A stretch of 64,000 bases of DNA, taken from IMG/VR virus record IMGVR_UViG_3300045009_000924, positions 39,249 to 103,248 of that record; one strand, given 5' to 3'. This DNA comes from a virus. Numbering within the stretch: the stretch's first letter is position 1; each line of letters starts with the position of its first letter. Shown here piece after piece: positions 2 through 50,469 of this stretch. The notes under the pieces are model-generated. The model worked only from the letters and a program-made list of their open reading frames with translations. It made no database searches and was not told the DNA's origin. Made by a program: the position numbers and the translations under genes.

Positions 2-3000
2 AGAAGAGTTGGCCCACTACTTCCTAAAATTGGAGAAACTTTTGCATTTCTTGCTGGCACAAATGAGGAATTAATACAAAAAGCATTTGAGTACGCCCAA
101 CTTTTGAACAACGAAGTCCAGATGGAAACACTTGCATGGATTATTAGAAATCCCGGCAAGACTCCACCACCAGGGCTTGTTCCTCAAATAACTATCGCTC
201 CCAAAAAATTCGACGATATTCTTACGTTTCTTAAGCACTACGCCTGGGTTTTGGATAGCGCAAAGGGACGTGCAGGAAAAAAACCGCCCAAATCTCCATT
301 TATAGGAAACCTGTGGACTAGAGAACAAATTAAAAGAGAAGCTTTAAGGCCGGGCAAAACACAGCTTAGAACAATGTGGAGAATACTTCACCCCCGCAAC
401 GGCCAACCAATGCACCCACGAAGACTTATACACCTAATGGAGGGAGGAATGCGAAGAACTGGTGTTTTGGGACCAGACGGCCGAGAGACACTTGTGTTCG
501 AACCAGCAGTCATTCTCCCTGAACGCAAGGTACTAAAAATTGAAACACAATTTCATTTTCTTCATGCAAAAAAAGAAAAAGGCGAATTAAGCATCGAAGA
601 ATTGAAAAATCAACCAACAACAAAATTAAGCAACAGAGCAGACGTAACCGACACCTCTCTTAATAAAGTGACCGTGTTGGCTGGCAAAGGCAAAGGCGAC
701 TCTGCGCAACAGTCGGATATTCACTGGCATCTTGAAATGGAACAACAAGATAGCAGTGGTAAATGGAAAGTAATTGACGGAACATGGGACCACAACTCCA
801 AAAAACCAGGACGATGGACTGGGCGAGTCATACTAACTGGACAGGGACTCAGTGGCTCAAAGTTAAGGGGAGGCGGACAAGGTAAACGAAGACCAGCTGG
901 GTATTATCAAGAAGATGTAAAAAGAATAACCACAAGAGACCCCAGATTCAAAAAATATTTTGTTTATGAAGAAAGCATGGGAGTGATTAGGCGTGCCGCC
1001 GCTGCAGGGCAGGGTGAAACAACTTCACGAAACGACCAATATGCGATAGACATAAAAGACGTTGATGGAAGCGAAGAAAGACTGTCAGAAATAATACGGG
1101 AAGTTTCACAGGAAATACTCAAAGCGGCAAACACAAATGGGGCAGATGCAACGATAACGACAGCGCAACTATTTAAAGGACTCGAAGCACATACCATCGT
1201 GATAGGTGAGGCTTTCCAAAATGCATTTGACGAAGAAAGAGAAGCGTTTAAAAGAGTCGGTAAAAAATCACCACAAATGAGAGAAATGTTGAATACTGTA
1301 TATGTCGCTTTAACTAGAGCAGAAAAACAAATTGACATTGGCGAAAGAATCGCCAAACTTTATTTTAATAGAGATAGCAGGCGGCGAGCCATAGACCACA
1401 TAAATGACGAAATTGCAAAACTTAGAAAATCTGGAAAGCCAGAAGATTTGACACTTGCAGATGCTCTCGAAATTCCCCAAAATCATTTTTACGGCATTGA
1501 TGACGACGACCCGAGAAGACCAGGACTACCAACCCCCACCTCACGGTCGGATGATGACGATACACGGGTGAATGAGGAGGCAGATAATGCCGAAATAGAA
1601 GTAGATAATGCCGAACTAGAAGAGGATGAAAACATAGTTCCCAACAAAGATAATGATGATGATGATGGGGAACCAACTGTTGATGAAGACAACATTGCCG
1701 GCAAGGATGATGAACAAAATGAGGATGAAACCTCTTATGTCAACTCTGGCAGGGTGAGCTCCGGAAGAGAAAATAACATAGTGGCAGTGTTGGGCAACCG
1801 GCCACGACGAGGAGTTCTCTCTCGGGAAGCTCAAAAAATTTGGGATACAAACTTCCCCGAGCAATTGAATAAAATAATAAAAAATAACAATAAAAATGAT
1901 GTATTGTCCCTTTATTCAGATACAACAAAATCAGAAATATCAAAAATATATAGAGGAAAAAATCGCTCATCGACTTTTTCGGAGAACCCGGATTTGGGGT
2001 TGGACCCAGACCACGAAGAGACGGAGTTTGATTTCTTCAATGTAAACCAAAAAGATTTTGAAAAAGCAAACAAGTTAATTAATCGGGTCGGCAAAGTATC
2101 AAATGTTGTCTGGGCACTGAAAAATTCAAACGATAAAAATTCAAGTCCCAAAACACAGCTGGCTGCGAAAAAAATACTCAATGATGCACGGTATGACCGA
2201 CTTTCATCTGGCAGGGCCGACAGAAGAGTAATTAAGAGTCTTGACGACGTCAAACAAAACATGAAGTATGACCACAGCAGGGCTGCGGATTACAAAATGA
2301 CGGACGAGCAAATAAATATATCCGATGCAGTAATGACAGGGGACAACATTGTTGTTCGAGCCCTTGCGGGAACTGGAAAAACCTCAACCTTGCTGTCGAC
2401 CGCAAAACGATTGCTTGACCAAGAGCCAGACAAGAGAATTGTCTATTTGACGTTTACAAGAAAAATGGCAGAAGAAGCAAGAAAAAAATTTAAAGATTAC
2501 CCCAATGTTGAAGTTAGAACTTGGGACTCCGTTGGATTTGGAATTATTGGAACAAACGAAAAACTTGCACGAAAAACAAATTCACAAAATCCAGGAATAA
2601 TCGGCGTCGGAAATAATGAAGATGTTGCTAACCATTACGGATTTCAGGATGATTTTGAACAAATTCAAGTAAAAAACAAACAGGGAGATTTGGTTCCAGA
2701 AACTGTTGGCTTAACCAGAAGACAAAGAGCTGCACTAATGGCAAGAGCGGCAACAGAATTTTCAACTGGAAAAAATCAAAAAACTAACAGACCCTATACG
2801 GAAATGAACAAATCTCTAATTGGAATCGCTGCTTCTAAAATGGGGATAAATAGACTCAGTGACAGACAAATCGAAGAACTCGTCCGTCAAGCTCAAAAAT
2901 TTTGGAACGATTCATTCGATGAAAATAGTCCACTGGAAATGTCAAGAAGTTATATTTTGAAAAAATGGTCATTAACAAACCCCGACCTTGGCACTGGCGC

Positions 3001-6000
3001 TGGTATGAAAAAAAATGTTGATGGCAATGACATAATTTTCTTCGATGAAGCACAAGATGCCAATCCGGTGATGACTGATGTCATTAGAAATCAAAAAATT
3101 CAATGGATAGCGGTGGGCGACAGTAATCAAGCAATTTATGAATTCAGGGGCGCCGTTGACGAATTGGAAGACCTTGAAGCTCCATATCAACTAACGCTCA
3201 CAAAAACATTTAGATTTGGCAAAGAAATACAGGCTATTGCAAACAGATTTCTCAAAGCTCATGAAACAAAACTGACAAACGAAGAAGACGAAACACCAAT
3301 ATTCGCAAAATTGAGAATCGACGCAGCTGGTCCAGAGGGAATAATTCTCGATTCCGAGGAAATGTTTCCCAAAGGAATTGCCGTTTCTGCAACTAGGGAA
3401 ACAAAGAAAAATGGAAGTAAGGAAACACTTGCATTTTTGTCACAAACAAATGCAAAATCTTTTGAAAGAATAATTAATGAACAAGACAATGGTCGAAAAA
3501 CAGGGTCAACAACTACATTTAAGAATGACCTGACCGGAATGATTGACCACATGGAATGGTTGCAGGGTGGTAAGAAGACTGAAAAACCTAAGAATGTATT
3601 TCCGCCGCTGTGGAGCGTAAAAAATTGGGACGAACTTGCCAAGGCCGCAGGCCCACTTGGAGAGGGGGGAGCAACCGAGCTAGGAGGGGGAGCACCGGAA
3701 GAATCAGTTGAAAATGTCGACGTAAGTCAACAGGCACTTACCGCTTACAGATTATTTGCTAAATATAACTTTAACTGGTCAAAAATGAGACAACATGTAG
3801 CAAATATACAAACACTTGATGGCGGAGATGTAATAAGTAGAAAGATAACTGCTGCAGATTTGCTCGATGAATTTGAACCAGTGGAAATTGTTGATGGCGG
3901 AGTTTTGTCGGCAAGCTGGAACCCACGAACAAAACAAATTGTTTTGAAAAACGAGGGGGGAGATTGGGGGCAATTCACTGCTTACAAAGACCTATTGATA
4001 AAAGGCAAATACAAATTTACCTGGGGGGACCCAGCCGGTAAATACGGCAGAAAAACAGAACAACCAGGATGGCACCTGGAAGTTCCCAATGTTGATGCTG
4101 CTGCTTCAACTCTCAATAATCTTGCTAAAGATATTGAAATTGGTATACCGGGTGGTGATTCTCCGGAGTTTTCTTCACTTCAAACTTTTTCCCCCATTGT
4201 TGAGGGGAGCGGGAGCATACCCAATTATTTGAGCGGCGCGAAATACATCGATGATAAAAGAAACACAAAAACAGTTAACTCCGAAATAACACTTCGTTTC
4301 AAGCGAGCAGATGGAAAATTTGTTGCCGTGGCGGATGGAAACACATTCCAAGTAAAAAACGTACTCAAGGGACAAGACCCCAAAACCAAAAAGTCAACAT
4401 TTGCATGGTCGTCAAAAGATAAACCCCAATTTGGCGAACCAAATAAATGGGTTACCTCAGCAGACACAATTGAGGAATTGTACGAAAAACTTGAAAACCT
4501 CCGAAAAGTTAATAATTTAAGCGGTGGTTCCTCCTTCTTGCTGCAACCAACACCATTGCAGGGGGCGGCGAAGAATAGTGTTGACATAGTTGCGCAAACA
4601 GCACATAGGTCCAAAGGACTGGAATTCGACAATGTTATTTTGGCGGGTGATTTCAAGGCACCGAAATGGGAGGAACTAGCTGAGGAATTAATAGTAAAAA
4701 TGCAAAAAGATGGAAGAGTTATATCTAAAGAAGACATTGGTTCTCTTAAGGAATTTTTGGAACTTCTTACACCCAAAGAGAGAGAAGAATTTAAGAAAAA
4801 GATAATTAAATCGATGGGAGCTGAAGAAATTCGATTGCAATATGTTGCCGCAACAAGGGCAATGCGAAGACTTGTTCCGGGTTCACTTTCATGGATATTC
4901 GACGTCACCGACAATGAGGACGAAGAATTTAAAAAAGTGGACATTTCGAAACCAAAGACACCAACAAGAAGAGCGGAAAGAAGAAATAGAAACACACAAG
5001 AGGGGGATGACAGGGTCTCGTCTGGCAGAGACCGAGACGAATCTGAAATTGACCCCGATTATCCAATCGCAACAGAGGAAGAGCGTAGACAGAACGAATA
5101 TGAAATGGGCCTGGATAATGAGGTAGACGAAAGAATTAGAGAAGGAGACAAAAAGAGCAGGAGACAGATAGAAAAGGAAATAAACCAAAGAGACGTAGAT
5201 GCTGGAGATGAACAGGCAAAAGTAAAACAAAGAGAAATTATCGATAGAGATAAAAGATTGCAAAGTTCTGAAATTGACCCCGATTATCCAATCGCAACAG
5301 AGGAAGAGCGTAGACAGAACGAATATGAAATGGGCCTGGATAATGAGGTAGACGAAAGAATTAGAGAAGGAGACAAAAAGAGCAGGAGACAGATAGAAAA
5401 GGAAATAAACCAAAGAGACGTAGATGCTGGAGATGAACAGGCAAAAGTAAAACAAAGACAAATTATCGATAGAGATAAAAGATTGCAAAGTGGCGCTGAC
5501 CAAACGACAGAAGAGGGAAGGCTGGCAAGAAGAAACAGAAAAAACAATAATATTGACGATTCTGGCGATGGGCGAATCAGCAGTGGCCGCGACACGGTGT
5601 CTGCTCGAATCGTAGAAAAAATGCACGGCTTTAGTGCTGACAATGATGAAAATGAATCGGCGAGACGCGCATGGGAGAGAATAAAAGAAAAAGGTTGGTT
5701 GATTGACCCATCGGGTGTCACTGGCGAGGGAATAGACAAAAAGAAAATCGAATCAACATCTATTGGAATGGCAAATATTGGTTCGAGAATAGCCGCCAGA
5801 AACAGAAAAATAAAAATTGGTGACATATCAAAAAATAATCCTGATTCAGCAAATCAAGAAACATGGATGCTTCCTGTTGAAAAACTTAAAAAAATGATAC
5901 GAATACCCACCAAATGGGACCCCGAAACTGGCGACGTAATTGAAAGACGGGAATTAAGTAGCGCAGAATTGGGGACAATGCTCAATTTGACTATTAGCGA

Positions 6001-7183: not shown

Positions 7184-7246
7184 TTAGAGACATTTAAATA
7201 ACGGTTAATGCCAGCAACGGTATTTTCCTGCACACACAGGAGTTCT

Positions 7247-8917
7247 ATGAGCTACAGCGAAAAGGCAAATGTAAGCGTCGACGCGGACGGGAATGTACTC
7301 AAATGCGCCAAAGGCGCTAACGCTGGCGAATGCGGTTTTGTCAAGGGTGCTGCGATTTGTGCTAAATGCGGCGCAATACCAGTGGAAATGAAAATGGTGC
7401 CTGTTTCCGAAGTTGAAGAAGAAGAAATGATGGAAGAAACCGAAGGGGAAATGCCGAAAAAAACCAGAAAGAAGAAACTTAAAAAAGAATCCGGTGCTTA
7501 TGCGTCAATGGATGATGACGAGGAAGACATGGAGGGGGAGGAGATGGGCAAAAAGGAAATGGCAATGGATGATGATGATTCCGAAATGATGGAGGATGAA
7601 GTTACCGAAGAGGAAGAAGTTCCTACAAAGTCTAAAAAATCTTGGAAAAGAACAAAAGGAAAAGCCGCCCATGCATCCATGGACGACGAAGAGGAAATGG
7701 ACGAAGAGGAAATGCCATCCGAAGAGGAGGAGGAAGTCGTTGAAGAGACGGGAGAGGAAGACGAGGAAGTTGAAGTTGAAGAAGAGGTAGACGAGGAGGA
7801 AATTGAAGAAGACGAAATGAAGTCCAGTTATGCGCGTCGCCGAAAAATGGGCAAAAAAGCAGCCGTTGATATGGAGGCGGAAGACGAAGAAGAGCTCGAA
7901 GACGAAGAGGTGACGGACGAAGAAGAGGAAATGACGGACGAAGAAGAGGAAATGGGTGAAAAATCTTTTACTCCATCAGATACTTATTGGGAAGAGGTTC
8001 GTCGCTCAAGAATAAATTCACTTGGAATCAAATCGGCAGACCTGGGTGCTTTTGGTTATTTGTGTGCTCTTGAAAGAAAGGCATATCCGGGTTCGTCTCC
8101 GGTTTGTGATGATTGCCCTGGTGGCTGCGTTGCGGAGAAGGGTCTGCCCGGCATTCTTCACGCCGAGGGCGTGGCAGAACAAATGTTTGACGGCGTCGTC
8201 ATTGACTCTGGATATTCGCCAGATGCGGATATGTTTGTCGTTGACGTACAAGGAAAAGATGGTGTAGTAAAAGAAGTCTTTGTTGACGGAACAAGTGCCG
8301 AAATAATGGGATTTCATAAACTAGACATTTCCGAATTCGAACAAAAATCGGATTATTCAGAATACAAACTTATTGATTTTACCGAAGCCGCAGAAATAGC
8401 GATTAAATCAATTGACGGCCATGTTGTGGCTGTCGAACCGGACGTATTTGAAGGTTTTGATACATACGCTGTTGAAATTGAGGGATTTGACGGGAAATCA
8501 TATGATGTTTTTGTTTCTCTTGATGGAGAGGTTCTTGGATACGACAGATACGAGCAAGATGAAGCAATTGAAATAGAAGCCGAAGCGGCAGAAATAGCGA
8601 TGAAGCGTGCTTTTTCTGAAGAAAAGCGGCAAGAGTTGGCTAAATCCGGCATGGCGTTACCGGATGGCTCTTATCCAATAGTTTCGGAAACTGACTTGAG
8701 AAATGCCATTCAAGCATTTGGTCGCGCCAAAGACAAGGAATCCGCAAAGAAGCACATAATGAAACGCGCAAGAGCGCTAAAACTCGAGAGCTTAATTCCT
8801 GCAAACTGGCTTGCTGGCGCAAGCGAGAAAAGTGAAAAAGAGGTGGATGATGCTTCATTCATGGCTTCACTTGTTGAATTCCAGCTTCTCGAAGACCAAA
8901 TCGACAGCGACAATTAA
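7247..8917 (+). CDS. Highly acidic putative head/scaffold-associated protein with Cys clusters, two PepSY-like domains and a conserved C-terminal phage domain
   Basis: SD CAGGAG precedes ATG 7247. Cys cluster C..C..CAKC, then a ~200-aa E/D/M-rich tract. Two PepSY-like repeats (AEGVAEQMFDGVV...KEVFVDG; AAEIAIKSIDGHVV...YDVFVSLDG). C-terminal motif ALPDGSYPI..DLRNAIQAFGRA. Confidence 0.65.
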   Translation: MSYSEKANVSVDADGNVLKCAKGANAGECGFVKGAAICAKCGAIPVEMKMVPVSEVEEEEMMEETEGEMPKKTRKKKLKKESGAYASMDDDEEDMEGEEMGKKEMAMDDDDSEMMEDEVTEEEEVPTKSKKSWKRTKGKAAHASMDDEEEMDEEEMPSEEEEEVVEETGEEDEEVEVEEEVDEEEIEEDEMKSSYARRRKMGKKAAVDMEAEDEEELEDEEVTDEEEEMTDEEEEMGEKSFTPSDTYWEEVRRSRINSLGIKSADLGAFGYLCALERKAYPGSSPVCDDCPGGCVAEKGLPGILHAEGVAEQMFDGVVIDSGYSPDADMFVVDVQGKDGVVKEVFVDGTSAEIMGFHKLDISEFEQKSDYSEYKLIDFTEAAEIAIKSIDGHVVAVEPDVFEGFDTYAVEIEGFDGKSYDVFVSLDGEVLGYDRYEQDEAIEIEAEAAEIAMKRAFSEEKRQELAKSGMALPDGSYPIVSETDLRNAIQAFGRAKDKESAKKHIMKRARALKLESLIPANWLAGASEKSEKEVDDASFMASLVEFQLLEDQIDSDN

Positions 8918-8947: not shown

Positions 8948-11900
8948 ATGAAAAAAACACGTCACATTATTTCAGAGCGTCTATTCGCGCCCAAAAAATG
9001 CTGCGATGGACAAAATGAAAGAGCAATTGCATTTAAGAGGGCAATATATATTTCTGCTAAAACAGAAATATTGAATCCCGATATAGCCGTAAAAGCAGCA
9101 ATGTCGATTGGCGATTCCTACGGCGGAGGAGAAAAAAGAACAACGTACGAAGATACGGATAATAGAAAAAGAGATTTCAGCGGAGATTTGCCGCCAGGTT
9201 TAGAAAAAGATGAATTGGGAAATATTTGGGACAAAAATAAAAAATACACACCGGGTGACAGGCTTGTTCTTTTCCCGAATAGATTAACAAGAAACAGATT
9301 ACCACAGACTCCAAATTTTGGTTGGATTTCTCCACCCGCTCAAAAAAATGTTGAAAAATCAGAAGAAAATGAACCAGTCATTGTATTAAAAAAATACAAA
9401 GTAAATCCAAAAACTGACGACATAATTCCATCAACTGAAAAAATTTTAAATCCCCTAAATCATTCTTCCGGCGACAGCATGGATGACTTTATAAACGGAA
9501 TTACAAAAAGTAATAAAATAAATACGAAAATACTCCCTGGCAGACCCCTGAAAGACAGAATACCGGGAGGAAGGCTCATTGCCAGAGCAGCCGCAATGAT
9601 TGGCATAATAACAGACGCAAATAATAAATTTAGATGCCCACCGGGAACTCCAGCAGCAAATCAATTCACCGATATGCGTGGAACAACTTGTTTTGGATTT
9701 AGTGCATCAAGGTTTGCAAAATTTGCCGCAGAAAAAGCCGTAGAACTAACCGACGCAGGAGAATTGCAAGGTTTTAAGCGATTCGTAAGTAGGGCCATGA
9801 ACTGGGTTAATGGTGGCTCATGGGATGACGACCAAGGAATAAGCAACCTTCCAGTCAACAGACCTATTGAATACTTTTTTGGAAGAACACCAGGTTTCGA
9901 CCCCGTCACGGGAACAACCGCAAGACCGGACTGGGCATCTGCCGATGTGCCAGATTCTGCTGGCGGCAGAACTTTTAAAAACACAATGATTGAAGGTCAA
10001 AGAAGAATTGATGAAGCAAAAAAAATAGTAGATGATTTAATGTCATCACTTGGCGTGGATACTTCTGCTCCAGCAAGGGAAAACAACTCCGATATATATG
10101 AAACTTTTGACAGACTCAAGGAAAACGGACAGTGGGATGTTCAAATAGAAAGACTAGATGACAACGAAGTTAGAGCATTGGTTGTAAAAGAACTGAGGAG
10201 AAGATTTAGAGCCTTAAAAGCATCAGGAGAAACAACACTAACATTCGACTCCCTGCCACCAGAAATAAAAGAAAGCTTAATTAAATCCGAAACAGCAAGA
10301 TTCAGAGTTACGGAAAGAGCTGTTGCCAGCACCATTCTTGAACAATTTGCGTTAATGCCAGAACATATGAAAAAAATAAAAACTATTCGTTTAACAAAAA
10401 ATGAACCTGGCACAAAACATCCGGATGAAGGTTCTTTCGGATTTATGCAAAACGCAGAAACGGGAGAAATAGCATCTTCGATATTTTTTAATTTTGACAC
10501 GATTTTAGAAAATCAAACAAAGAATGTTCCTGGAATAAAATTTGACGAAAGACTTTTGGTGACAGCAATTGATGGAATGTCTGATGCCGAAAGGGCTGAA
10601 GCAGTAGCAGATTTTATAACAAGTGCAAATGATTTTGCAAAAAATAGAGCCTCACTTGTTTCTGGAGTTGAATCATTTTCCAGATTTATAGCTTTGCACG
10701 AAATAGGTCACTCTATTCAGGGCGAAGCGTTTGTTGCGTATTTGAAACGCAACTTTGACGAAACTGGAAAACTTGAATTTGTTGATTCGGCAGGAAAATT
10801 GCGCTCATTTACATCAATTACAGAAATGACAGCCAGTGATTTTAACAGCGCTCTCGTGGCGTTTTCGCGAGATGCGATTGAGTCAAACCCCGCATTAAAA
10901 GAACAATTATTAAAACTTGCCGATGTTTACGGCAAATACCCCCGTGGATACCTTGATAACGGAGGGAGTGGATTTTTTCTTTTAGAAGCCCAAGCAGAGA
11001 TGTGGGCTATGCGAGAAATGGGATTAATACATGGTGATGATATTGACCTCGCGCTCTCCTCAATGGACGAATACGAAAACGCAGAACTAAGAAAACAAAG
11101 GCTCAAAAAAGCATCTTCCATTGTCGAAGAATCAAAAGAAAAAAGAAAAATAGAAAGCATGAAGAGGCCGTGGGAAAAAACAGATAAACAAATAGATTCT
11201 GATATGAAAAAAATTAAAGACAGAATTAAGGACAGAGAGGGAACTGATAATTCAGATTTATTGAATATCGCCGCAGTGGCCGAACTTGAGATGGATGATG
11301 CCAAAAATAATTACGACTTGGCGAGTAAGGAATATGACAGAATCAAAGAAGCAATTGAAAAGGGTGAAGATGTTGACTTTGATTCGGCTTCAAAACTTGA
11401 TGTTTTGGCAAGCGCCAAGGAAAACGCTAAAAAAGATTTTGAATATTTTAAAAAAATAAGAGAAATGACTAAAAAAGAATGGATGAGCAGAAACACCATT
11501 GGCGACAGGGGGGCCTCAAGAGAGTTTGAGGATGCTCTTTACAAATTTAGAGAAGAAAAAGGAATTTTGAAAGGGTCAGAAAAAGCAGAAATTGTTGAAA
11601 AATTAAAAATACAAGAGCTAAAAGCTCAAGCAGAAAGACTTGACGACAAATCTCTGGTTGACGATTACACAAATATTATGTCCATTATCGACAAGGGTGA
11701 ATATTCTTCGCCAGAAGAATACGATGAGATGCTTAAACAAAGCGAAATACTGTTAGACGAATACATCAGAAGAGCCAGAGCTGCTGGTGATACAAGAAGA
11801 AAAAGCACAATACGAAAAAGTCTGCTTGAAAAAGTAGATGAAAAATCTTCTCCAAAATCCAAAAAAATTAAAAAATTTAAAAGCGGAGCAGATGCAAAAA

Positions 11901-20640: not shown

Positions 20641-20641
20641 A

Positions 20642-27457: not shown

Positions 27458-27502
27458 TTAAAAATTCTATATCATCATTACCCCTGTCTGTTCCACTTCC
27501 AT

Positions 27503-30053: not shown

Positions 30054-30068
30054 ACTAAATATTTTACA

Positions 30069-30701: not shown

Positions 30702-30797
30702 GATAAAAATACTAAAACACGGAACAAAAAATAAAAGTCAATAAATATTTTAAAATAGTTGCATTCCGGGTCGTGTGTTAGCACTAGGGTGTTGGGC

Positions 30798-31055: not shown

Positions 31056-31088
31056 TTTGTGTTTGCCCTGGCGGGGGGCAGCCCAAAT

Positions 31089-31502: not shown

Positions 31503-31527
31503 CCTTTCTCCCATCACGGGAGGAGAA

Positions 31528-31920: not shown

Positions 31921-31922
31921 AA

Positions 31923-34342: not shown

Positions 34343-34654
34343 GTGTCAAATAATTCAAACGAAATGTCAAATATAAAAATAGCCATGGACAAAATTTCAG
34401 AAACAATGGAATCGAAAATTCCACTTTCCGTGACCAATGACGGTGGGCCGGCTGATAAACAAGTTTTAATAAGAACAACTGAGCAAGAAAGAGAAAAATG
34501 GAAGATGGCTTCGGAAAAAGACGGCTTAAATCTTTCAGCATGGATTAGAAAACACCTGAACGAACAATCAGAAAAAGTTCTTACCTGTCAACACGAAGTT
34601 GTCAAGTCCTACCCCTGGGCGACAATTTGTGTGAAGTGTCGTCAAAGGTTGTAA
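34343..34654 (+). CDS. Ribbon-helix-helix-like DNA-binding protein with a C-terminal Zn motif
   Basis: QVLIRTT..EREKWK.AS...GLNLSAWIR; C.H...CVKC. Confidence 0.6.
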   Translation: MSNNSNEMSNIKIAMDKISETMESKIPLSVTNDGGPADKQVLIRTTEQEREKWKMASEKDGLNLSAWIRKHLNEQSEKVLTCQHEVVKSYPWATICVKCRQRL

Positions 34655-34704
34655 TAATAATTTAAAAACAATTTCAAATGCACAGAATGGTATTATTGCA
34701 GTAA

Positions 34705-37700: not shown

Positions 37701-40700
37701 TTATTTTCTCAAATTTGATGCCGAATCCGAAAATGGTTTGAATGTATTGAAAACAGTATTGATAAATTCCCTTCTTAAAGAATGGAACAAATCTTCAAAT
37801 TCTCCGATTTCAAAAATGATTAATGCTGCAGCTTCTGAATTGTTTGATGGCGAAACGCAAAAATACAAAAATCAAAGACAAATGGATTTCATCAGAGATT
37901 TTGCAAGCACCATATATGAAAAGACACAAGACTATTTTCGTGGCAAGGGAATAACTCATATTGGTTTATATAGAAGTTTAAATATCAGTGACGATATTGA
38001 AAAACAAATAAAAGAATCGATGCTGGATATCGACGGAAATAAAAAAATGTTTTTGGGGGTAGTGGATGGAAATCAACTCTCCTCATGGTCCAACAACATT
38101 GATTCAACGTTGGCGCCCATAAAAAGAAGTGTTGGAAAATCAGCGATACTTAAATCAATTGTTAAATCTGATGATGTTTTTTCGATGCATTTATTTGGGA
38201 TGGGCTCTTCTGATAATGAAGAATTCATATTGAAAAACAATAAAAGACCATCTATTTTGAGATTAATTGAAAACGATGAAATGGACAATTCTTCGTTATC
38301 AAAAATTTCCAAATCGCTGCAAAAATACGATGAATCTTCCTTTTTTTCAAATATTAATACGTATGCGAAAATAACAAAAGAGAAAGATGAAGAAACTTTC
38401 AGATATTTGGTGAATTTTTTGAACAATGATGATGAGTCATCGTCAAGGCTTTCTTCGGGTGGTTCATCTCGAGCAAAGATTGCACTGGATACAGCTTTCA
38501 AAAAAATAATAAAAAAATTCAGAAACGTTAAATACACAAAAACAAAACAAAATGAAGGTTCTGGTATTGACCCGTCCACCGGGCAAGTTTCCGAAATTGA
38601 TTTTATTATTCCAACCCAACAAAGATTTGACCCATCGTACGGGGTGGATTTATCGGAAGCACTCAAAGCGGGCGGATATTCAAGTATTTCTGTGTTGAAA
38701 TACATGGAAGGAGACAACTTTGACCCCCAAAAAAATATTATCGAAACTGAAATAGATTCAACAATTATCGGACCCGAATCATCATTGGCGATGGTTTATG
38801 AAGTTGTTGGTGATGCATCTCGTCTGGACCTTCGCCGGAATGAGCGGGGAGAACCCACGATAAGCGTGCAGAGTGCAGCAAAAAGAGCAGTGGCTGCCGG
38901 AATTGCTGAACACATGGACGAAAGTGCTAAGGAAATCAGTTCGTTGCTCCTCAAAAGAGGCGACGTTATCGATTTGTTTCCCGAAAAATACAGAGACCAA
39001 CTTAGAAAATTATTTAAAATATTTGAAACAGAAAAAGAATTTTTCGAATCTACGACAGAAGAAACAGATGAAGGGGCGGAAACTATTTTTGGTGTCGAAA
39101 AAGACGAAGTTGGTACACCGGACACCTCGTCATCGGCATTGCTTGCAGAGTTAATTGAAATAACAAAGCCAGGTGTTGAGCAAAATCGCCCAGAATCAGA
39201 TTATGAATTCTTAATTGACCCGTCCACCGGGCAAGTTCTAGAAAGAAACGCAAATCGTGCTTATGACTCATTAAAAAATACCTTAGTTGCTCGCTCAAAA
39301 TTAATTAAAGGATTTTCCTCCATTATTGGCCAGGGGGACGGGGTGGATAGAAAAAAAATTATTTCGCTTTTTCCACAACTAAAAGAAGGCGTTGAATTTT
39401 GGAATCAAATAAAAGATGATTTAACCAACGGTTCGGGGTGGAAAAATGGTCAATTCTCAAGAGCTGACATAGCTCAGATTCTCCTAGAAAGATTAATTGA
39501 CGACGCCTTTAATATTAACAGCCCAGAATCAGGACAAACAGTTGGAAAAGCTTTCCTCCCCGACCACCAAAGGCAAAGATTTGTTTCTATTTTAAGAGAT
39601 ATTGGCGGATTGACAGAACAAGAACTGTTCATGCTTGGTTACGGACGGGCAATATTTGGTGAAACGAATGCAGAGTTTGACGCGAGTGCATATTTGATTT
39701 TTGAATCTATTCGTTCCGCCAGGGTCGTCCCCAAAGACGCCCAGTCTGGCTTTGGAAGATATTCAATTCAGTATGGAATTCTTTCTGATTCCAAAGATAC
39801 AAAAGAAAATTTGAAGGATTTCCAAACAATTTTTGAACTGAGCCCATCAAGTTCACAGCCAGAAAACGACCGCCTCCCCGCACCCGATATCAAAGATGTT
39901 GACCTGATTATTGCCGCAGAGCAAGATTCGATAAGAGATTTTGGTGGAGACGAACTGATGCCACGGGGTTCCGTGAGAAACGAACCAAACAAATATACAG
40001 GAAAAACCTACGTTTTAGAAAATCAATTGAATAAAAGAACACTTCAAGTGCGAAGGAGAGAACATCAAACTGCAATACTCGAGCCACTTTTTGGAAAAGA
40101 AGGGGGCCAATTGGAGGATGTAAAAATTGATGTGTATGAACACATTGATGGGAAAATTCATTACTTCTTTCGTAAAGCATCAGACCCACTGCGACCACCA
40201 AGTGGTGAAATGGTTGAGCAACTTGGCCAATCTTCGTACGAAATTAAAAAAAGAGAAAATCAATATCCAAACGGGCTGATAAAAACAGTTGATTTACGCC
40301 TTTCTGGATTAAACATGGACTCTGCAGCCACGGTAATAGATAGATTTTTAACAGAAGAACACCTAAGAGAAAGAATTGAACTCATCAATGAGAAAATCAA
40401 AGCCGCAGTAAAACAATATGGAAATCTTGCCGTTCCAGGCGAAATTTCTGACATGAACGGTTCAATATTTCCCAACGCGAAGATGGACTCTGAGCTAGAG
40501 TCGTCACTTCGTCGTAATTTGGATAGTGCAAAAATGCTTGTCTATTCATTTGCATTTAACGAGCGTTATGATGCCAGAACGGAAGAGGGACAAAAAGCCT
40601 TAAAACGCACAATTTTGTCAAAATTAATACAAGCATGGGCTGGCAGCTCAAATAAAGTTCTTTTATCTACTCTCTCACAAGAACTGGCCAGAGAGATTTT

Positions 40701-43700
40701 TTCAATAAATGGAGCAACATCACTCGAAGACATGCTCACAGAAGCCACCGCACCAAAAGGAACTGTGGTTGGTGTTTTGCGTGAAGTTTATCAAAACGGT
40801 GAACAACTCGAAATACCAGATGGAGTCAAATCGGTTTTAACAAGCGTTTTGAAGGCGATGCACGAAAATACCCAACAGTATTTTAGGGAAAAGGGAATAA
40901 GCCACATAACTATATACAGGGGGATGAGCTTGCCAAATCGCTTGCTCCCATTTAAAAAGTTTTCCACCCAAGAAGAAATAAGGGCCACCGGGGGGATTGC
41001 AGAAGAATCTCAACTCGTTTCCGTATCAATGAGACCACTCTCATCGTGGTCGACAAGTTTTGATTTGGCATCAAGATTTGGTGGTGATATTTTTGAAAAT
41101 AGTTCCGGAGACAATGGGAGAACTGGTGTTGTTTTGGCATCAACTGTTCCCGTGGAAGACATTTTGGCAATCCCATTAACCGGATTTGGATGTCTCATGG
41201 AGCACGAAGTTGTTTTGCTTGGTAGGCAAAGAGAAGCAATAATAAATAAAAATTCAACATTAAGCAAATATCCAAAAGAGAAATTAAATTTTTTTAAAAA
41301 AATAGATTCGGATTTTGTACAGCCACTGAGAGAAAAAGAAATGGAATTGATGTCCGGGGAAGAAAGACTTTCCTCCGGAGCGGAATTCATGAATTCAAAA
41401 CTAGAAAAAAACATAAACAGTAAAGAAATATTGGATATGTCAAAAAACATAACCATGGAATTTGAAGATTCGGAAAAGACAAATATATTTAACAACCCCC
41501 AGAACGCATATCGACTTGGGCTTGGTGTCGATTCAGAAATAAATGAAGGGATTGTGATACCCAGAAATCAAAAAGGATTACAACTTAAAAACATTGATTT
41601 ATTTGACGAAAATGGAGAACCGACAGAAAGCCTTATCGATGATTTTCTTGGCTGGGCAATACTAAACGGAGAAAACGAATTTTTATATGGCAAAACAAAT
41701 GATTCCGATGCCGCACTCAATACGTCAATAACTGACGATGACATCCACTTTGACGTAGTCGACGTATATCCAGAAACAAAAGAATTTATTGACAGGGCCA
41801 AGTTTTTGGCGTTCGGAGAAAAACAAACAAACGCTATGGTTTTGTCAAAATTAAGGCAAATAGACAATCAGGGAAATATTCCCAGCGACTCATTTTTAAA
41901 TTCGGGCGCAACGGGGGCAAAAAACATAACTCAAAGCACAATTAGAAAGTTCAATGAAAACAGAAACAAATTTATTCAAAATTTAAACACTACTGGTAGC
42001 CCGAAATTGAGACAAATAGGAAACATCAGAAGGGTTGAGCTACAAAAACACAAAAATGTAAAAAGAGTTAGGTTTGAGTCGAGTCCGAACAACTTTGAGG
42101 ATTATTTTATTTTTGATTCAAATGACGGTCTTTCTGTTTCGGTATTTTCTGGAGAACAGCTTAAAAAATACATAAATAATTCAACTTCCAACAGACCTTC
42201 GGTCAATCAACTCAATCAAATGACCAAAAAAGAAAAACCTGTTGCCAAATTGCAGGTTGACAAAAATAAAACTGACTTTTTGTCAATGTTTAATCTAAGC
42301 ATAGATGAATCTCATAGAAATAGGGGAATAGCAGATGCAATGATTCGTGTTCAGCATGAATTTAATGCAAATGATATATCAAAATATGCGGAAAGACTTT
42401 CAAGCGGAACAAATTCAAATAAAAAGAAAGAAAGAAAAACTGTAAAAATAGGTACACCGGGTTTTAATAATAAAATAATAACTTTAACATACAAAGTTTA
42501 CGACAGTGAATCTGATTGGATTAACGAAAAATACCCAAGACCGAATAAAAAACAAATACAAAAAATAAAAGAAGCTGGGGACAGGATAATAAAATCACGC
42601 CTTGATGCTGTTTGGTTTACATTTCAACAACCAAATGGAGAAAAAATAAATTCCCCACTGCTGACGTACAGCGGAAGATTGATGATGATTGTAAATGTCA
42701 ATGGTGTTCGTGTCCCATTTTATAGAAGCAGTGGAAAAAATCCCAAAGAGGGAGTTGTTCCGGGACAGTGGTATCCGTTTTTTGGAATAAACACGAAGGG
42801 TCAGTGGTTTAATAAGTTTGACAGAATGAGCACGTACTACGATATTCCGGAACTCAGAGAGGTAGCAAAAATACTTGATTTGACAGTCGGCAACGACCTG
42901 CCCAATCCCGAAAAATTTCGCTGGAATGCAGCTGACAGAAAAATAAAACCAGGGCTTCGAAGAAATCCCAAAGGTGATGGCTTTATTGAAACAGATACGA
43001 ATATTGAAAAGCCAGGATTGAAGCGAGCGATTGCAGAAGAGATGAATAGGGATTTGCCAGAGCCCTTCCCGACTCCATATTTTGCTAAGAAAGAAGAAAA
43101 AGAGAGATTGGCCATTCTTGCTAATTTGATTTTTAATGGCAGGGAAACTAGTAAAAAGGGATATTTGTTGGACGAGGAAAGAATTTCTTCAGGAAGAGAA
43201 AAAAAGAAGAAAGCTACAAAATTCAAAACAATACCGCAAAATGACAAAAGAATAAAAGAATTTACAGAACGATATGGAACAATAGAAAAAGCTGGAAATA
43301 TCTACTTTGAGGAATCTGACGAGAATTTGTGGGACAGATATAAAAAAACGCTTTCGGATTACCCAAACTTAATACAAACACAATTAACGGAACCCGAAAA
43401 ACCATTATCTGCGCAAAACTGGAATCCAGGAGTCGCTTTTGCTAGGGAAATGTTCAATAAAGCAAAATTTGTTGAATATACAAACGAAAAAGGAGAAAAA
43501 TATCTAATTGCATTAGTAATGGACACAACAAACAAGAGAGTTGTTGCAATAGATGTAAATGAATTGAAAAAGGACATGCGAAAATACAAATCTCGCTTTA
43601 CCAGCTGGAATAAAGTTCTGGATACGTATACAAACAGAAAAAACCCTAATCACTCTGGTTCTAGGCACATCCGCGCACTTGTTGGATGGATTAATTACGA

Positions 43701-46700
43701 CTATCAAGGCAAGTTTCAGTCTCGAGAAATAATTTCTGGCTCGCAATATGGAGATGAACGTTTTGAAATTCCGGAAAAATGGGTAGTGACCGATGCAAAA
43801 GTAAAAGCATGGCACCAGGGACGAGGCATCGCAAAAGAGTTAGTGGAGTTTCACAGAGAAGTTTTCCCAGAACTCAATTTGGGCTATAAATTTAAAAACG
43901 AAAAAGAAAAACTTGAGTATTTCGAAAGATTTGACTGGTGGGAAGGAAAAGATAAAGAAGACGCTGAACAAAGAAAACAAAGCATCCGCGTGCGTGCCGA
44001 TTCATTGGGTGAGAATATTACGCAAGAAGATGTGGAAACACGTCTTCGCTCTGGTGGTGGCGATTCACTAGAAACAAAGCAAAAAAAATTCAGACAATCA
44101 GAAAAGTTGGCCCAAGCAAGAAAATTATTGCAATCAATCTTTAACGATACACCAGTAAAAGGTTTAATTCAAGTCGAAAATAAAAGAGAAGAAAAAATGA
44201 AAAGCATGCTTGCCAGGGGCTTGCAAAAAATAGGAATTCCCAATGATTGGATTTGGCGAATTCCCGGGAAAACAGACGACGAGGCGATGGATGAAGTTTT
44301 ATCGTTGCTGCCAGAAGAAGAGCGTATTGTTTCCGCAATATTGGAATCAGGCAATGGAATAATTGAAGCAATAGATGACGAAATTTCGCAACTTTTTGAA
44401 ATTTCACAAAATGGTGTGATTGATGAAAAAACAGGAAAACCAAATTTTGACCTGGTTGCAGCAAGGCTTCAAAAACTGGTTGAACTAAAAGACGAAATGG
44501 CTGCCCATACGTCGCGATTGGATTCTCTCGCGTCAGATATTCCAGGGCTGGAAAACCTAGACGAAACTTCATATGAAGTTTTGCTTGGTGTTGCGCTTGG
44601 CAAGAACCGAACCAAAGAGCAATCAAAAATCAAAAGCGTTCCATATGCGGTAGACGCAAAAACATTTGTAAAAACTTTAAGAGATGTACTGAGTATTGTA
44701 AATTCTTCAAATAGTGAAGCGGAAAAAAATAACACGCTAACAAATAGGAGAATGAGGATTAGCGACCCGCGACGCATTGATGATTTGGCAATTGGTCGCA
44801 CCTCTATAGTAAATAAAGTTGAAAGAAATGAACAGGGAATACACAAAGTTGAATTTGTTGGCAAAAAACTTAAAAATATAACACGCAGTCAACTGGCACA
44901 AGACGAAAATGACCCATCCGGGTTTTACGAAATGCGAAAACCAACAGAAATTGTAGGAACATTAACAGAAGAAGAAAAAAATCTTATTGAGAAAAACCCG
45001 AACGTGGTAAGCGACCTCTTGGCAATACTTAGAGAATCGCAGCTAACTGCTGAGAATATAGTCCGCGACTTTGTATCCGGTGATATGGATGTTGATGAAA
45101 AAACAGAAAAACAAATTCCATTGCTTCAGCTAAGCGACGAAAGCATTTTGCGCTCATTTGAGAAATATGACATGTTTTGGTTAGCGCCTTACTCAAGTGG
45201 GGATTGGTCTTACGTTGACGAGAGAAATTGGGGAAAGTCATATGATTTCTTAACTGACGATGAAAAAAGAAATCTTAAAGAATTGAGAGAAAAGATAGAA
45301 GCTGAAAAATTATTAATAGAACAAGGTTTGCCCAGAACAATGTCACAAGAAGAGTACGAAAAGCTGGTGGTTGCGCGGGAGCAGATGCTTTCTTCTAAGG
45401 TGGCGATTAAGTTTACTCCATATCTTGGTGAAGCAGAGATAACCAGTTTGCCCCTGGGCAATGGCAATGGATATGCTGTTTCAATTAAGAACTTCGGTGA
45501 CGATATTGTTATCAGAAAATCGGGAGCGTGGGGAACTGACAGGGTAGACCTAGTCGACTTGCCTCCCAAATACCAGAATTTTATAAAAGATATGGAAGAA
45601 AACCTTAGAGCATTCCTTGCCATTTCTGGAGAAGATAGAAAAAAAATATTTCTTTCGCAGGTGCGAAAATTTTTTGAATCTGAACAAGTCCAATCGATAG
45701 AACGAGCAGTTTTTAACACCAACACAAAGAGTGACATAGTTCTTGCGGACGGTTCCGTAATACCAGCAGGAACAACTCTTGGGGCAATGAGAGAACGGAC
45801 CAGGGCGGCGTCCAGGAAGATTGCCGCATGGGAAAAAGAGCTTGTTGAATTAATAGTAGAACATAACGAAAAGATTTCGTGGGATGAAACAACAATCAGA
45901 ACTTTGCAAGATTTGAGCCAACTGCAGAATTCTTTGAGTACAGAAGAAATAAATCAAATATGGAAAGAAGCAGGGCACGAAAAAATTAAGTCTTGGGCAA
46001 AAACAAGAATTTTGAGACTTCGACAACAAAAAATAATTGAAGCACTTGAATCCGTCGGAGTAACTTTTACCAACCCGGAAGATATAGATAAAGAATTTTA
46101 CGACATCACAAACGAACCAAATCGAAAGAGTATTGCTTCTGGTACGCCCAGTAAAGTTTATAAAATTTGGGAAATAAAAAATTCCAAAGATTCAACGGTG
46201 AGAACAAATGTACAATTGAAAGGAGATTTGCTATATCCATTGCTTGATGCTCAAGACAGAATTTTGAGAATGATACCGAAATCCCTTACAGATGGTTCTC
46301 TTTCTGAACAGCTTTCGTCCGTTCCGGACTACATTTACAGTCCGTATGTTACTTCTCAACGAAAACAAGTTGGCGAAAAAAGAGGCGTGCTTAGATTAAT
46401 TTCATTTTTGGGTTTTGGTAGAGATAGTGCTAATCATAGGGCAAATCACGGAGACTTTTACGACGAAAACGGAAATATCGTGTCAATAATATCCAGCGCC
46501 CGTATTCCAACGTTGGGTGGAAAACTTTTTAAAAAGGACGACACAGACATACAGAACTGGGAAAGGGTTCAGCTTCACGAAACTGTACATGGCGTAGAAA
46601 CAGTTAATCCATGGTTGGGTGCTCTTCAACATATTTTTTGGTTAAGCAGAAGAAAAAAGGGAGAAAAATTGAAAAAACTTAGCGACATTGTTACAGCAAA

Positions 46701-49700
46701 AGGAGGACATGGTCATTACACCGATAATGAAGTTGCACTCGAGGACGATTGGAAATTTGCATATGCTGGCAAAAAATACGGAGGCCCTGATTTGTATGAA
46801 AGAAATGAGACATGGGAAATATTAACAACTGGAATGGAAAGGCTGTTTTTTGGAAGTCGAAATTTGGAAGTTGAAGACGAGATAGATAGAGACCATTTGA
46901 ATTTTGTTGTCGGTGTTTTGGCCCTAAGCGCTACAAAACCAGGAAACAGTCCTATTCAAATTCCCAAAACAGAAAGACTTTCCTCTGGTTCGCTTCCATC
47001 TAGCTCAGATGAAAAACGCGCTTTAAAACGACTTTCCTCTGGGCGGAAAAATGAAATAGACGAAAATGGACGATTTGTGGCAATCGAGAGACAAGAGGAC
47101 GATAAATTTAAATCGCGCAATTTTCTGCTGAGTCAGGCGTACGCATTCACCGACCTTTCGGACGAAAAAATAAAAGAAATCACAACTTCTGACAAAGGTT
47201 ATTACGGTTTTGCAAAATCCGAGGCAAGCCAATTTAGAGATTTTAAGTTGGAAGTAGGTACCAAACGCGAAGACTATCTAGAAAACATAGAAAAATATCT
47301 AAAATTAGATACGACGTACTATGAAGAATCCGTTCCCGGATTATCGAGCGACACCTTACTTTATCAGATTGCAACAATTCGAGCTACACAAAGTAACATT
47401 GAACATCTTGTTGATTATTTTAGTGAAAACGATTCTTCGCCATCTCTTCTGTCGCTTATTGCTTCACAAGCCGTCTTTGACAGAGTCCTGCCGGCATTTG
47501 ACAATATGATTCATGGCTCTGCGAGAAAAAAAGAATACAGAAGAGAAGCAGAAGAGGCGGCAGTGCGCCTATCAAAAACTGCACAACATTATATTTCGAA
47601 TTTCAAGAATGCACTACAAACAGGCGAAGCAAAAGAAGAGTCATTTGATGAACTGATTAGGTTTTTCGCCAAAGAATTAAAAAAATTAAAAAAACAACAG
47701 GCGCGAAAAAACACAATGGCAACAAACACCAACATATTGGACAATAGGTTGTCCTTTGTCGAACCAGTACTACGAGATTTAATGTCGCATCGCGAAAAAG
47801 TGCATCGACTCAATCATCCGGAATTGCCGTTTAACACTTCGGCAGAAAATGTTGACCGCGCATATGTGGCATCCTCGATTTTTTCGGGCTCCCTGATGGG
47901 TTCCTGGATACACCAATCTGATAGTCTTGGTGCAAACATATTTAGATATATCGTCGGTGATTCTCTAACAGAAAGTATTGCAAATTCAAAGCCAGAGTCA
48001 TTAGAAAGACAGAAAACCATAAAAGCAGCAGCTTCACTGTTGGATAAATTTGGTTTTGCTGAGGACGCCGAAAGGGGTCTTGTGTCAGTGGGTGCAATTC
48101 GCTCGATTGCGCGCGCAGTATATCGCTCAACGCAAGAGACCCTCAGGCGTAATGGAATTCGTTCAATCAAGCTCTATCGTGGCTCGTCGAATGAGGAGTT
48201 GCGACAAAAATTAGATTCTGTACCAGGTGATGAGATGATTACTGACCTGCGTCTCAGGCCAATAAGCAGCTGGACCTTTTCGGACGAACTGGCTCATGGA
48301 TTTTATGGAAACTATATCAAATATGGCCAATTTGAACCAGAAAAAGAGAATGCAAGTCGACCAGATTATAAACCGTACAAACCGGAATTGCAACAAAAAA
48401 TATTTGATAATCATGTTGTATATGAGGCCGACATACCAGCAGAGCAGGTGTTTTCCTTGCCTGTTTTCGGAGCAGAAGATGAAGTTCTCGTTATTGGGCC
48501 AACAGCCAAAAAAGCTAAAGTCATTCGAGGCGACTTTACAAAACGAAAACATCAACCAAAAGTGATATTGCCGTCAGAAAGACTTTCATCAGGTGGAAAA
48601 AAAACAATAGAAAGAATGAAAAAAGCCAAAATTCCAGATTTTGCCGTAAGGGCAATTTTATCGGAGGCAACAAAATACAACTCCCCGTATGAATTTTACA
48701 CTGCTTTTACCCTAAAGGGGATGGAAGGTGTGTACACGCATTTGACCTCAGATAAAAATTTTAAAATAGACCCCCGAAAAACAACATTCGCCGGCAGTAA
48801 TTTCACAACAGAACCAGGCCTGTTTGTCAGTATGAGCCCAGAATTTTGGAAGAGCACGTTCAACGAAGAAATTTCGAGTACGGAGAACATAACCCCAAAA
48901 AGAAAAAGACAAATGAAGTCCCAAAAAGCACAATACTTGGCGATTATCACCATGGCGAACGCTCCAAGTGGTTCATATATGAACACTAATACTGGTGAGG
49001 GAAATCAGATTCTTCTACGCCCGCAAGCCCTGCTTAACGCTGAGGTTCATCGCGTCATGCCATACAAAGAGGGTGTCAGATATTTCAACAGACTTCGCGA
49101 CAGGATTTACAACGTGATTACAGATGGGGATTTAGTTAACGGCGGGAATATCAAAGAGGAGCTTGAGGGTATTTGGCATTATGCAAATACCCAGAGTGAG
49201 CGTTTGTCCTCAGCCCAAAAAGCTAAAGTCATTCGAGGCGACTCTACAAAACGAAGACAAAGAAGAAAGAGATTGTCGTCAGAACGACTCTCTTCGGGTA
49301 TCGAACTTTTCCCCGTAGGAGAAGTTGCTGAACCGCCAAGGACAACCCAAGAAAAACTCGACCAAGGTCCAAAATCTTTGCAATTTGGAAGAGGTTCAAA
49401 CGGCACACCACGAGTTGCCGAACTTGCAGAATTGAAAAAAGTTTACGGAAATAGTGTAGGTCAAAATAGGAGATATTTTGCTAACAAATATAGAAATTAC
49501 AATCTGAAATTTAATTTTAAAAGACCTCCGGTAAAAGGCAACCCTCTTGACATCCATGCTTATTACGGACAACTTCAGGCCATGGATGATGTTCTGTCAG
49601 TGCTTGACGAAAGTGGAGCTGCGGCAATGCTTGTCGATACAGAATTTATTATTAACCAGGCAGGCTTTTCTGTGAGAGGCGTTCCCGTCGGAGCTCTTGG

Positions 49701-50469: not shown

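Follow-up and report, generated by a model that had tools for sequence, protein, structure and literature searches.

A recurrent R-Phi-S-S-G junction peptide in the giant proteins of an uncultured tailed phage: a candidate polyprotein processing signal

Introduction

In this study we ask why one short peptide, arginine followed by a hydrophobic residue (Phi), two serines and a glycine, recurs in three giant proteins of an uncultured tailed phage, and what it might do there. The DNA analysed (the window) is the terminal 64 kb of one virus contig of 103,248 bp (IMGVR_UViG_3300045009_000924), and on its plus strand lie three giant open reading frames (ORFs): A (2-7120, partial), B (8948-17458) and C (34705-50469). 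We find that the peptide behaves as a selected inter-domain junction signal common to the giant proteins, a conclusion that is well supported by sequence comparison. We further propose that it is probably a proteolytic processing signal cut by a phage protease, the S78 prohead protease at the head of A being the favoured enzyme, and that cutting would split A, B, C and the tape-measure protein.

A junction peptide concentrated in the giant proteins

The strict motif R[LIV]SSG occurs 18 times in the window, with 4 copies in the part of A that it covers, 4 in B and 10 in C. In 2,000 shuffles of the three giants, a control that an earlier note on this DNA had proposed, the expectation was 0.0075, 0.0125 and 0.03 copies, respectively (sum about 0.05), with a maximum of 1-2. 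Loosening the motif to R[LIV]xS[GSAE] gave 6, 5 and 15 copies against 0.6, 0.8 and 1.5 expected. The strict form is absent from every other six-frame ORF of at least 60 amino acids (aa) in the window. Over the whole contig there are 25 strict copies in four proteins (A has 9, B 4, C 10 and the candidate tape-measure protein 2) and none in the other 83 contig ORFs. The motif is thus confined to the three giants within the window, as the earlier note had it, but not on the contig, where the tape measure has two. All motif positions given in that note translate to the peptide named in the ORF named, including the variants RLQSS (5255), RLQSG (5480), RLASG (35059), RLRSG (44041), RLSSA (49201) and RLSSE (49270).

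The 25 copies are 25 distinct 15-mers, and they use five arginine codons, seven codons for the hydrophobic residue and both serine codon families. Therefore the peptide, and not the DNA, is under selection, as had been argued before from the varied codons.

The sites as joints between modules

The 15 residues on each side of the sites are more disorder-prone and poorer in large hydrophobics than the rest of the same proteins, a bias present in 5/5 genomes, with p between 8e-3 and 2e-5. When the proteins are aligned, the sites fall in gap-rich stretches in which the motif itself is aligned. Of the internal BLAST block ends in the giants of five genomes, 32% come within 10 aa of a site, compared with 5% at random and at most 9.6% in 500 trials. 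A given module can occupy a different place in each chain or genome, and it is always bracketed by motifs or by the protein end. Residues 413-803 of C, for example, correspond to residues 414-793 in the related genome G001 (sites 397 and 779), 1618-1962 in G003 (sites 1602 and 1980), 1877-2233 in G002 (sites 1825 and 2243) and 867-1200 in G005 (site 861, then the protein end). The earlier note had asked whether homologues keep the linker while swapping modules; across five genomes modules have been relocated and junctions retained.

Model domain boundaries point the same way. An AlphaFold model of A 1040-1720, built on a 34-row alignment, shows two compact domains, and three of its four sites (1061, 1445 and 1656) lie in linker segments with a predicted local distance difference test (pLDDT) score below 50; the fourth is taken up below.

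Core and lineage dialects in related phages

Scanned with the A N-terminus as query, IMG/VR yielded 310 contigs that encode a relative of its protease region. In all relatives examined a portal gene is followed by a protease-headed giant ORF, and among the sampled A-type proteins [LF]SSG is the most over-represented tetrapeptide in each such ORF (3-16 copies). Four complete relatives were compared (G001, G002, G003 and G005), with genomes of 151-170 kb and terminal repeats, so that our contig is probably a fragment. In these four the motif is found chiefly in the A-, B- and C-type giants. Elsewhere the tetrapeptide is about as frequent as chance predicts (31 copies against 22 expected) and stands in hydrophobic contexts; the same counts show no depletion that would indicate avoidance of the motif elsewhere in the proteome. 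The earlier note had named, among other points, frequency in non-giant proteins and conservation in homologues: the former is at chance, and the core is kept in all A-type relatives sampled.

This conserved core is [LFMIV]-[S/A]-S-G, and the A-type N-terminal regions of the relatives that keep it are merely 48-76% identical. The form R-[LIV]-S-S-G described earlier is correct for this phage, but in the family the arginine is a lineage-specific addition. The residue before the core is R at 25/27 sites here, S at 18/25 in G001 (usually [LPI]-S-LSSG) and K/R at 19/23 in G002. It varies by lineage, yet it is uniform over all giants of one genome, which fits one trans-acting reader. In the distant relative L129 (9965-18058, plus strand), from a metagenome-assembled genome (MAG) binned as Phycisphaerae, the giant ORF is protease-headed and the locus partly N-masked; it is without Phi-SSG and has seven copies of G-[LF]-[AS]-S-[RH]-[RN]. 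Since this variant retains Phi-[S/A]-S, these three residues are the clade-wide invariant and would occupy the expected P3-P1 positions. Distant relatives have been placed in MAG bins of three different phyla. In Gordonia phage Chidiebere, which has the nearest cultured capsid (45% identity), the cargo is encoded by separate genes, in which the motif is not enriched.

Protein A: prohead protease, leader and enzyme modules

Upstream of the window, the N-terminus of A holds an S78 prohead protease, a leader and an ArdC module. Peptidase_S78 (PF04586) matches A aa 33-182 at E 2.6e-11 (44.4 bits, cut-off 21). ORF A begins 95 bp after the end of the portal gene (PF04860, E 2e-50), an order that relatives keep. 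His69 (VVWGHNW) and Ser133 (EWSIGY), which we take to be the catalytic residues by analogy with HK97 gp4, are invariant in 37 sequences, and the S78 domain as a whole is nearly invariant. A sequence search of the PDB with the A N-terminus returned nothing.

The protease is followed by a four-Cys element, a small folded domain and a leader segment of about 75 aa with the consensus K-A-I-G-R-R-L ... R-L-I-D-R-P ... D-P-D-x-D-G-W-x-D-E-G. The leader copy in A spans aa 554-613, and the segment is common to the N-terminus of every C-type protein; with a hidden Markov model (HMM) and alignment over five proteomes it was found in A- and C-type proteins only (E 1e-15 to 4e-37). The leader is followed within about 20-100 residues by the first junction site, in A as well as in C. 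This layout is that of a capsid-targeting propeptide, for which the leader is, by analogy, a candidate. The AlphaFold model of A 1-720 was poor (mean pLDDT 51) and suggests that the leader is disordered.

Some further observations concern the same region. The D-P-D-x-D-G-W-x-D-E-G stretch of the leader (A aa 554-660; window 34765-34992) resembles a calcium-binding loop, and in some lineages the stretch is replaced by a shorter G-D-L-N-P-x-T-R version. The four cysteines (C381, C384, C393 and C406, within A aa 370-410) are conserved in proteins that are otherwise Cys-poor, and the element may be a zinc knuckle. The conserved I-Q-S-G at A aa 522-525 was considered as a self-cleavage site and dropped, as the model suggests a strand of the small folded domain there. 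In two contigs binned with a gammaproteobacterial MAG the protease stands alone as a protein of 441-447 aa (L130:9935-11275 and L131:9935-11257, plus strand), with one F-A-S-G some 40 aa before the C-end; such a protease without cargo may represent the ancestral state.

Pfam recognizes ArdcN and MPTase-PolyVal (PF18818) in A with 110.9 bits, and A 1093-1447 is a complete ArdC fold according to Foldseek (6I89/6SNA, E 3e-16 to 4e-15, template modelling score on the target 0.73-0.78, 28-30% identity). The module thus joins the ArdC-N single-stranded-DNA-binding domain and the C-terminal metalloprotease (MPTase) in one fold of about 300 aa. Its HExxH is invariant in 34 sequences, and it is present in every A-type relative examined. 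Within the window, A contains a helicase module bounded by sites 2198 and 5012, and its 511-aa C-terminal module is kept at the C-end of all A-type proteins. The features of A in the window are as follows; here and below, junctions were read from the translation.

2-7120, plus strand: C-terminal 2,372 aa of giant protein A, from the ORF map (full ORF 4,804 aa, contig 31954-46368)
1751-1765, plus strand: RVSSG junction (A aa 3016-3020)
2198-2212, plus strand: RLSSG junction, N-edge of the helicase module, also by module comparison
2294-4876, plus strand: UvrD/SF1 helicase core (Pfam UvrD-helicase E 2.7e-19, UvrD_C E 7e-13; phrog_1967 E 1.9e-67)
5012-5026, plus strand: RVSSG junction, C-edge of the helicase module, aligning with KLSSG/FFSSG/LASG in relatives
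5573-5587, plus strand: RISSG junction ahead of the 511-aa C-terminal module

Proteins B and C

The N-terminal 1,234 aa of B form a conserved block that contains an HExxH motif, and four junction-delimited modules come after it. Pfam and PHROGs gave nothing for B, and an ESM Atlas search with B 1-1234 gave weak zincin-like leads only (0.83). The last module corresponds to a separate gene in G005; used to locate the exact cut position, this gene split gave no single-residue resolution.

8948-17458, plus strand: giant protein B, 2,836 aa, from the ORF map and comparison
10697-10711, plus strand: HEIGH zincin motif, conserved in 5/5 B-type proteins
12638-12652, plus strand: RLSSG junction, end of the conserved N-terminal block, also by alignment
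13424-13438, plus strand: RLSSG junction, position kept in 5/5 genomes (SRRTERL..LSSG)
15314-15328, plus strand: RLSSG junction
15971-15985, plus strand: RLSSG junction; in G005 the module that follows is a gene of its own (505 aa)

In C, ten strict sites and RLASG delimit 11-12 modules, for most of which Pfam and PHROGs gave nothing; self-BLAST of C revealed no internal repeats. Three paralogues resemble ADP-ribosyltransferases (ARTs) at the motif level only: an Arg, Ser-x-Ser and Glu-x-Glu are conserved (also in a relative), and each ends in ...RLSS-G. Pfam ART profile matches in C are sub-threshold (Tse2 ART E 0.11, DRAT E 0.039), and a PDB sequence search with a four-row ART-like profile gave no match. 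For GNAT, Pfam gave E 0.16 with the single module and E 0.0011 in a half-protein scan, where 19.7 bits are below the cut-off of 27; for a ParB-like module in C, Pfam gave no match. Among the catalytic modules that the earlier note saw bracketed by the motif, the helicase, the RNase_T exonuclease and the HExxH zincins are supported; the ARTs are resemblances at the motif level only, and GNAT and ParB find no support in Pfam.

34705-50469, plus strand: giant protein C, 5,254 aa
34765-34992, plus strand: leader segment (C aa 21-96), by alignment and HMM, candidate capsid-targeting propeptide
35059-35073, plus strand: RLASG, first site after the leader, aligning with SLSSG/RMSSG/RLSSG of other C-type proteins
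35197-35757, plus strand: DEDD (RNase_T) exonuclease (Pfam RNase_T E 1.2e-7; phrog_192 E 3e-23), between sites 35059 and 35929
35929-35943, plus strand: RISSG junction
35941-37113, plus strand: zincin module (HEWAH at 36640-36654), at four different positions in relatives' giants
37102-37116, plus strand: RLSSG junction
38446-38460, plus strand: RLSSG junction, end of ART-like paralogue 1 (37672-38457)
41365-41379, plus strand: RLSSG junction, end of ART-like paralogue 2 (40522-41376)
42394-42408, plus strand: RLSSG junction
43180-43194, plus strand: RISSG junction
46975-46989, plus strand: RLSSG junction, first of a pair
47029-47043, plus strand: RLSSG junction, second of the pair
48580-48594, plus strand: RLSSG junction, end of ART-like paralogue 3 (47902-48591)
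49285-49299, plus strand: RLSSG junction, preceded by the variant RLSSE at 49270

Two places in C thus carry paired sites: RLSSG twice, 18 aa apart (46975-47043), and RLSSE directly followed by RLSSG (49270-49299). Such pairs would yield very short fragments or redundant cut sites.

The tape measure and other possible carriers

The fourth carrier on the contig is an ORF of 1,836 aa (contig 9971-15481, minus strand) that comes after sheath, tube and chaperone genes and was called a tape-measure candidate by this position; it has no PHROG or Pfam tape-measure match. Its two sites, at about aa 36 and 580-584, read R[LF][SA]SG or similar, and their positions are kept in most of the genomes compared. 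The protein has no HExxH.

A possible fifth carrier is a protein of 1,391-1,452 aa in G001 (39403-43578, minus strand) and G003 (130824-135182, plus strand), which has a hydrophobic N-terminal segment and, in these two relatives, a conserved R-L-F-S-S-G at aa 129; it has no counterpart on our incomplete contig. The A-LSSG of the portal was not counted as a substrate site, being conserved in the nearest relatives only.

A proposed processing mechanism

The mechanism that we propose starts from an intact S78 prohead serine protease, which A carries N-terminally and directly after the portal gene. The leader of A and C would bring the chains into the prohead, as the propeptides of internal proteins do in T4 and SPN3US. 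There a phage protease would cut the exposed linkers, and S78 acting in trans is the likeliest enzyme. The cut would probably fall after the second Ser, with Phi as P3, Ser as P1 and Gly as P1', by analogy with prohead proteases and herpesvirus assemblin. These enzymes read P3 and P1 (assemblin cuts between A and S in V/L-x-A-S), and such reading, together with the invariant Phi-[S/A]-S, fits a cut at this place. About 25 fragments of roughly 150-1,360 aa would result, including the ArdC module, the UvrD-type helicase, the DEDD exonuclease, the zincins and the ART-like modules; they would stay in the head and be ejected with the DNA. Because every module bears the same junction, modules could be swapped without loss of processing, and movement of modules between chains and genomes is the pattern that we observe. 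A protease site is the most economical reading of the motif. The earlier note had likewise proposed a protease site, releasing about 20 effectors small enough to eject; the junction signal, the linkers, the S78 fusion and the leader agree with it, whereas cleavage and ejectability are predictions.

Several points weigh against this explanation. Its support is wholly comparative, and the cleavage products are predicted ones. The capsid protein, the canonical substrate of prohead proteases, is without Phi-[SA]SG in 5/5 genomes, its conserved V-x-S-W bearing merely a loose resemblance to the junction motif, and the portal has its site in the closest relatives only. The tape measure assembles outside the head, where a strictly prohead-confined protease should not reach it. 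The fourth modelled site of A, at 1090, has a high pLDDT and lies at the N-edge of the ArdC fold. Furthermore, S78 is so conserved that only its position 85 tracks the preference for R or S in the flank: covariation with the S-LSSG lineage involves position 85 (and 181 at the domain edge) of S78 versus 42 columns of the ArdC module, a comparison confounded by phylogeny. The flank shift is therefore not explained by visible co-evolution of the protease. A predicted complex of the S78 domain (with alignment) and a 41-aa linker at A 1445 scored 0.00 and was not used as evidence. Each giant also has one conserved zincin, any of which could be the processing enzyme. Finally, giants need not be cut at all: N4 packages an uncut protein of 3,500 aa, as cited by Iyer, Burroughs, Anand, de Souza and Aravind (2017; PMC5512222).

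Alternative readings

The signal might instead be read by a zincin of the polyproteins themselves, the ArdC-type MPTase in A or the HExxH modules in B and C, with a cut just before the hydrophobic residue of Phi-S-S-G. A hydrophobic P1' residue is typical of zincin specificity, and the variable residue before it would then be a tolerated P1. Exactly one HExxH module per giant is conserved in 5/5 genomes, and the ArdC motif is invariant and found throughout the A-type relatives, as described above. A cytoplasmic or post-injection enzyme could also reach the tape measure. Cutting might precede packaging, occur in the head or follow injection. Iyer et al. made such a proposal for polyvalent proteins and predicted that the MPTase processes them (PMC5512222). 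However, the three zincin modules are not detectably related (hhalign probabilities 1-35%), so that self-processing would need three enzymes that share one specificity and shift their flank preference in concert; this does not argue against one zincin acting in trans. The tape measure has no zincin motif of its own, and pSa ArdC and RP4 TraC1, which have the same C-terminal MPTase type, are transferred uncut (PMC5512222). On balance we regard zincins as unlikely readers of the motif.

We give still less weight to the idea that the peptide stays uncut and is recognized by one factor, be it for docking at the portal, the capsid interior or the tail channel, for a chaperone or the pacing of ejection, or for Ser phosphorylation or O-glycosylation. 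R-x-S and R-x-x-S do resemble basophilic kinase sites, and exposed linkers also host docking and modification motifs. The motif is moreover common to proteins that must traverse the tail, namely the giants and the tape measure, and N4 ejects as well as packages uncut giant proteins (as cited in PMC5512222). Against a basophilic kinase site, the Arg is missing in whole lineages (S-LSSG; G-Phi-A-S-R). Recognition without cleavage also leaves the precise placement at module edges, the gene boundary in G005 and the leader-then-site layout unexplained, and up to 16 copies per chain would be unusual for docking.

That the peptide is a functionless relic, an ancestral linker copied with its modules or the footprint of DNA recombination, would suit the shuffling of modules between chains and genomes, but it is very improbable given 25 different 15-mers with both Ser codon families and unrelated flanks, a core kept despite the divergence of the A-type N-terminal regions, a flank residue that has shifted together at every site of a genome, and a chance-level frequency outside the giants.

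Gene surroundings

Upstream of the window, the contig of this tailed phage carries the sheath, tube, chaperone and tape-measure row and the portal. Apart from the giants, the window has genes for an HK97-fold capsid protein, a class II ribonucleotide reductase, a primase-helicase and a SNF2 helicase. A and B lie between the portal and capsid genes, and C comes after the replication genes. A Megablast search of window 20000-34000 against phage records gave no match.

22353-23756, plus strand: HK97-fold major capsid protein (Pfam Phage_capsid E 1.6e-43; alignment of five major capsid proteins)

The listed capsid ORF begins 27 codons ahead (window 22272-22352) of the start common to four relatives (M-S-Q-D-K-A-R), and by this alignment Met28 of that ORF, at window 22353, is probably where the protein begins. 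Its first 70 or so residues are helical and delta-domain-like, and the conserved V-x-S-W comes after them. The gene directly upstream of the capsid gene, at window 21436-22206 (plus strand), encodes 256 aa with two DUF3721 repeats (E 5e-15), and before it stands a basic ORF of 265 aa without a match; these are possible scaffold or head-internal proteins. Between A and B, at window 7208-8917 (plus strand), a hyper-acidic protein of 569 aa is encoded that has long Glu/Asp/Met runs and matches no family; a role as scaffold or as DNA mimic is conceivable. Similar acidic ORFs of 598-609 aa likewise come after the stand-alone protease in L130 and L131.

Implications

It might be possible that protease processing of this kind is a clade-wide polyprotein strategy, in which a protease-headed chain of 3,000-4,800 aa and a second giant are loaded by the leader and cut within Phi-S-S-G before the Gly, about 25 enzymes are injected, cassettes are swapped and the tape measure is processed too. 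We put this broader picture forward tentatively and with less confidence than the cleavage itself. The clade concerned is large, given the 310 IMG/VR contigs with a relative of the A protease N-terminus.

If the joints are indeed cut, they would represent a clear processing code for polyproteins, legible at the sequence level, in a tailed phage. The prediction of 2017 that polyvalent proteins are processed would become testable with defined sites, two candidate enzyme classes and predicted products. The motif also offers a rule by which thousands of residues in unannotated giant ORFs can be divided into functional units, and it would explain the quick swapping of anti-defence modules by such phages. 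In the broader picture, the two conserved sites in the tape measure would mean that an ejected tail protein is processed by the same enzyme. Phage-based protein delivery could profit from the leader, which may bring foreign proteins into capsids.

Comparison with known systems

Systems of the kind proposed here are known: packaged and ejected proteins are cleaved at short motifs by prohead proteases, and processing of polyvalent proteins has been predicted. T4 gp21 recognizes L/I-x-E and phiKZ gp175 S/A/G-x-E. In SPN3US, cleavage by gp245 occurs after A-x-E in proteins of the head and of ejection, and N-terminal propeptides are thereby removed (PMC10052503). The earlier note had compared our motif with the G-G motifs of adenovirus and African swine fever virus (ASFV); these are not the closest parallel, the T4 and SPN3US motifs on ejection proteins being closer. 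The large myoviruses T4, phiKZ and SPN3US have in common with our phage a capsid protease and a motif of 3-4 residues repeated in several packaged proteins (putatively packaged in our case), with P3 and P1 as determinants and a small P1' residue (as predicted for our phage). They differ in that their protease is of the gp21 type, whereas here it is an HK97-type S78; there mostly propeptides are taken off separate proteins, whereas here chains of 2,800-5,250 aa would be dissected. Moreover, in our phage the protease is fused to cargo, the capsid protein is without the motif and the tape measure has it. Cleavage is proven in those phages and proposed here.

HK97 gp4, a protein of 225 aa, digests the delta domain of the capsid protein and itself, and its C-terminus takes the protease into the prohead. 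Fusions of protease and scaffold are also known, as in lambda C/Nu3 and P2 gpO. The S78 domain of A is like gp4 in its fold family, its catalytic His and Ser, its place beside the portal and its C-terminal extension; the difference is the roughly 4,100 aa of enzymes that come after protease and leader here.

Among eukaryotic viruses, polyproteins are cut at a short consensus by picornavirus 3C, by potyvirus NIa, by pS273R at G-G-x in ASFV pp220/pp62 and by the adenovirus protease. As proposed for our phage, one ORF gives rise to many proteins, a consensus stands at each junction and the protease lies within the polyprotein. Those proteases are cysteine or chymotrypsin-like enzymes with demonstrated cleavage, whereas here cleavage is proposed from the comparison. 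We know of no established polyprotein strategy of such kind in tailed dsDNA phages.

Similar in composition are the polyvalent proteins of phages and conjugative elements, which Iyer et al. predicted to be co-delivered with the DNA and processed into units by the MPTase (PMC5512222), and one of which has been detected in phi24B virions by proteomics (bioRxiv 10.64898/2026.04.10.717836). The giants described here are likewise multi-domain proteins, of which A and B lie in a virion gene neighbourhood and C after replication genes, with ArdC-N, MPTase zincins, helicases, nucleases and ART-like domains; many unrelated conflict-type domains are combined in A (S78, ArdcN, MPTase-PolyVal and UvrD) and in C (RNase_T and HExxH). 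In contrast, PMC5512222 describes no recurrent junction peptide; the word 'linker' is absent from it and 'prohead protease' appears in its reference list only. In the searchable literature we found no description of a junction peptide at every module boundary, of a protease-cargo fusion, of a shared leader or of tape-measure sites, and no paper that pairs LSSG with a phage context, in line with the earlier note, which knew of no recurrent inter-domain linker in polyvalent proteins. Compared with the polyvalent proteins of PMC5512222, the giants of our phage thus have three features in addition: a defined junction code, an N-terminal fusion to an S78 protease and a shared leader.

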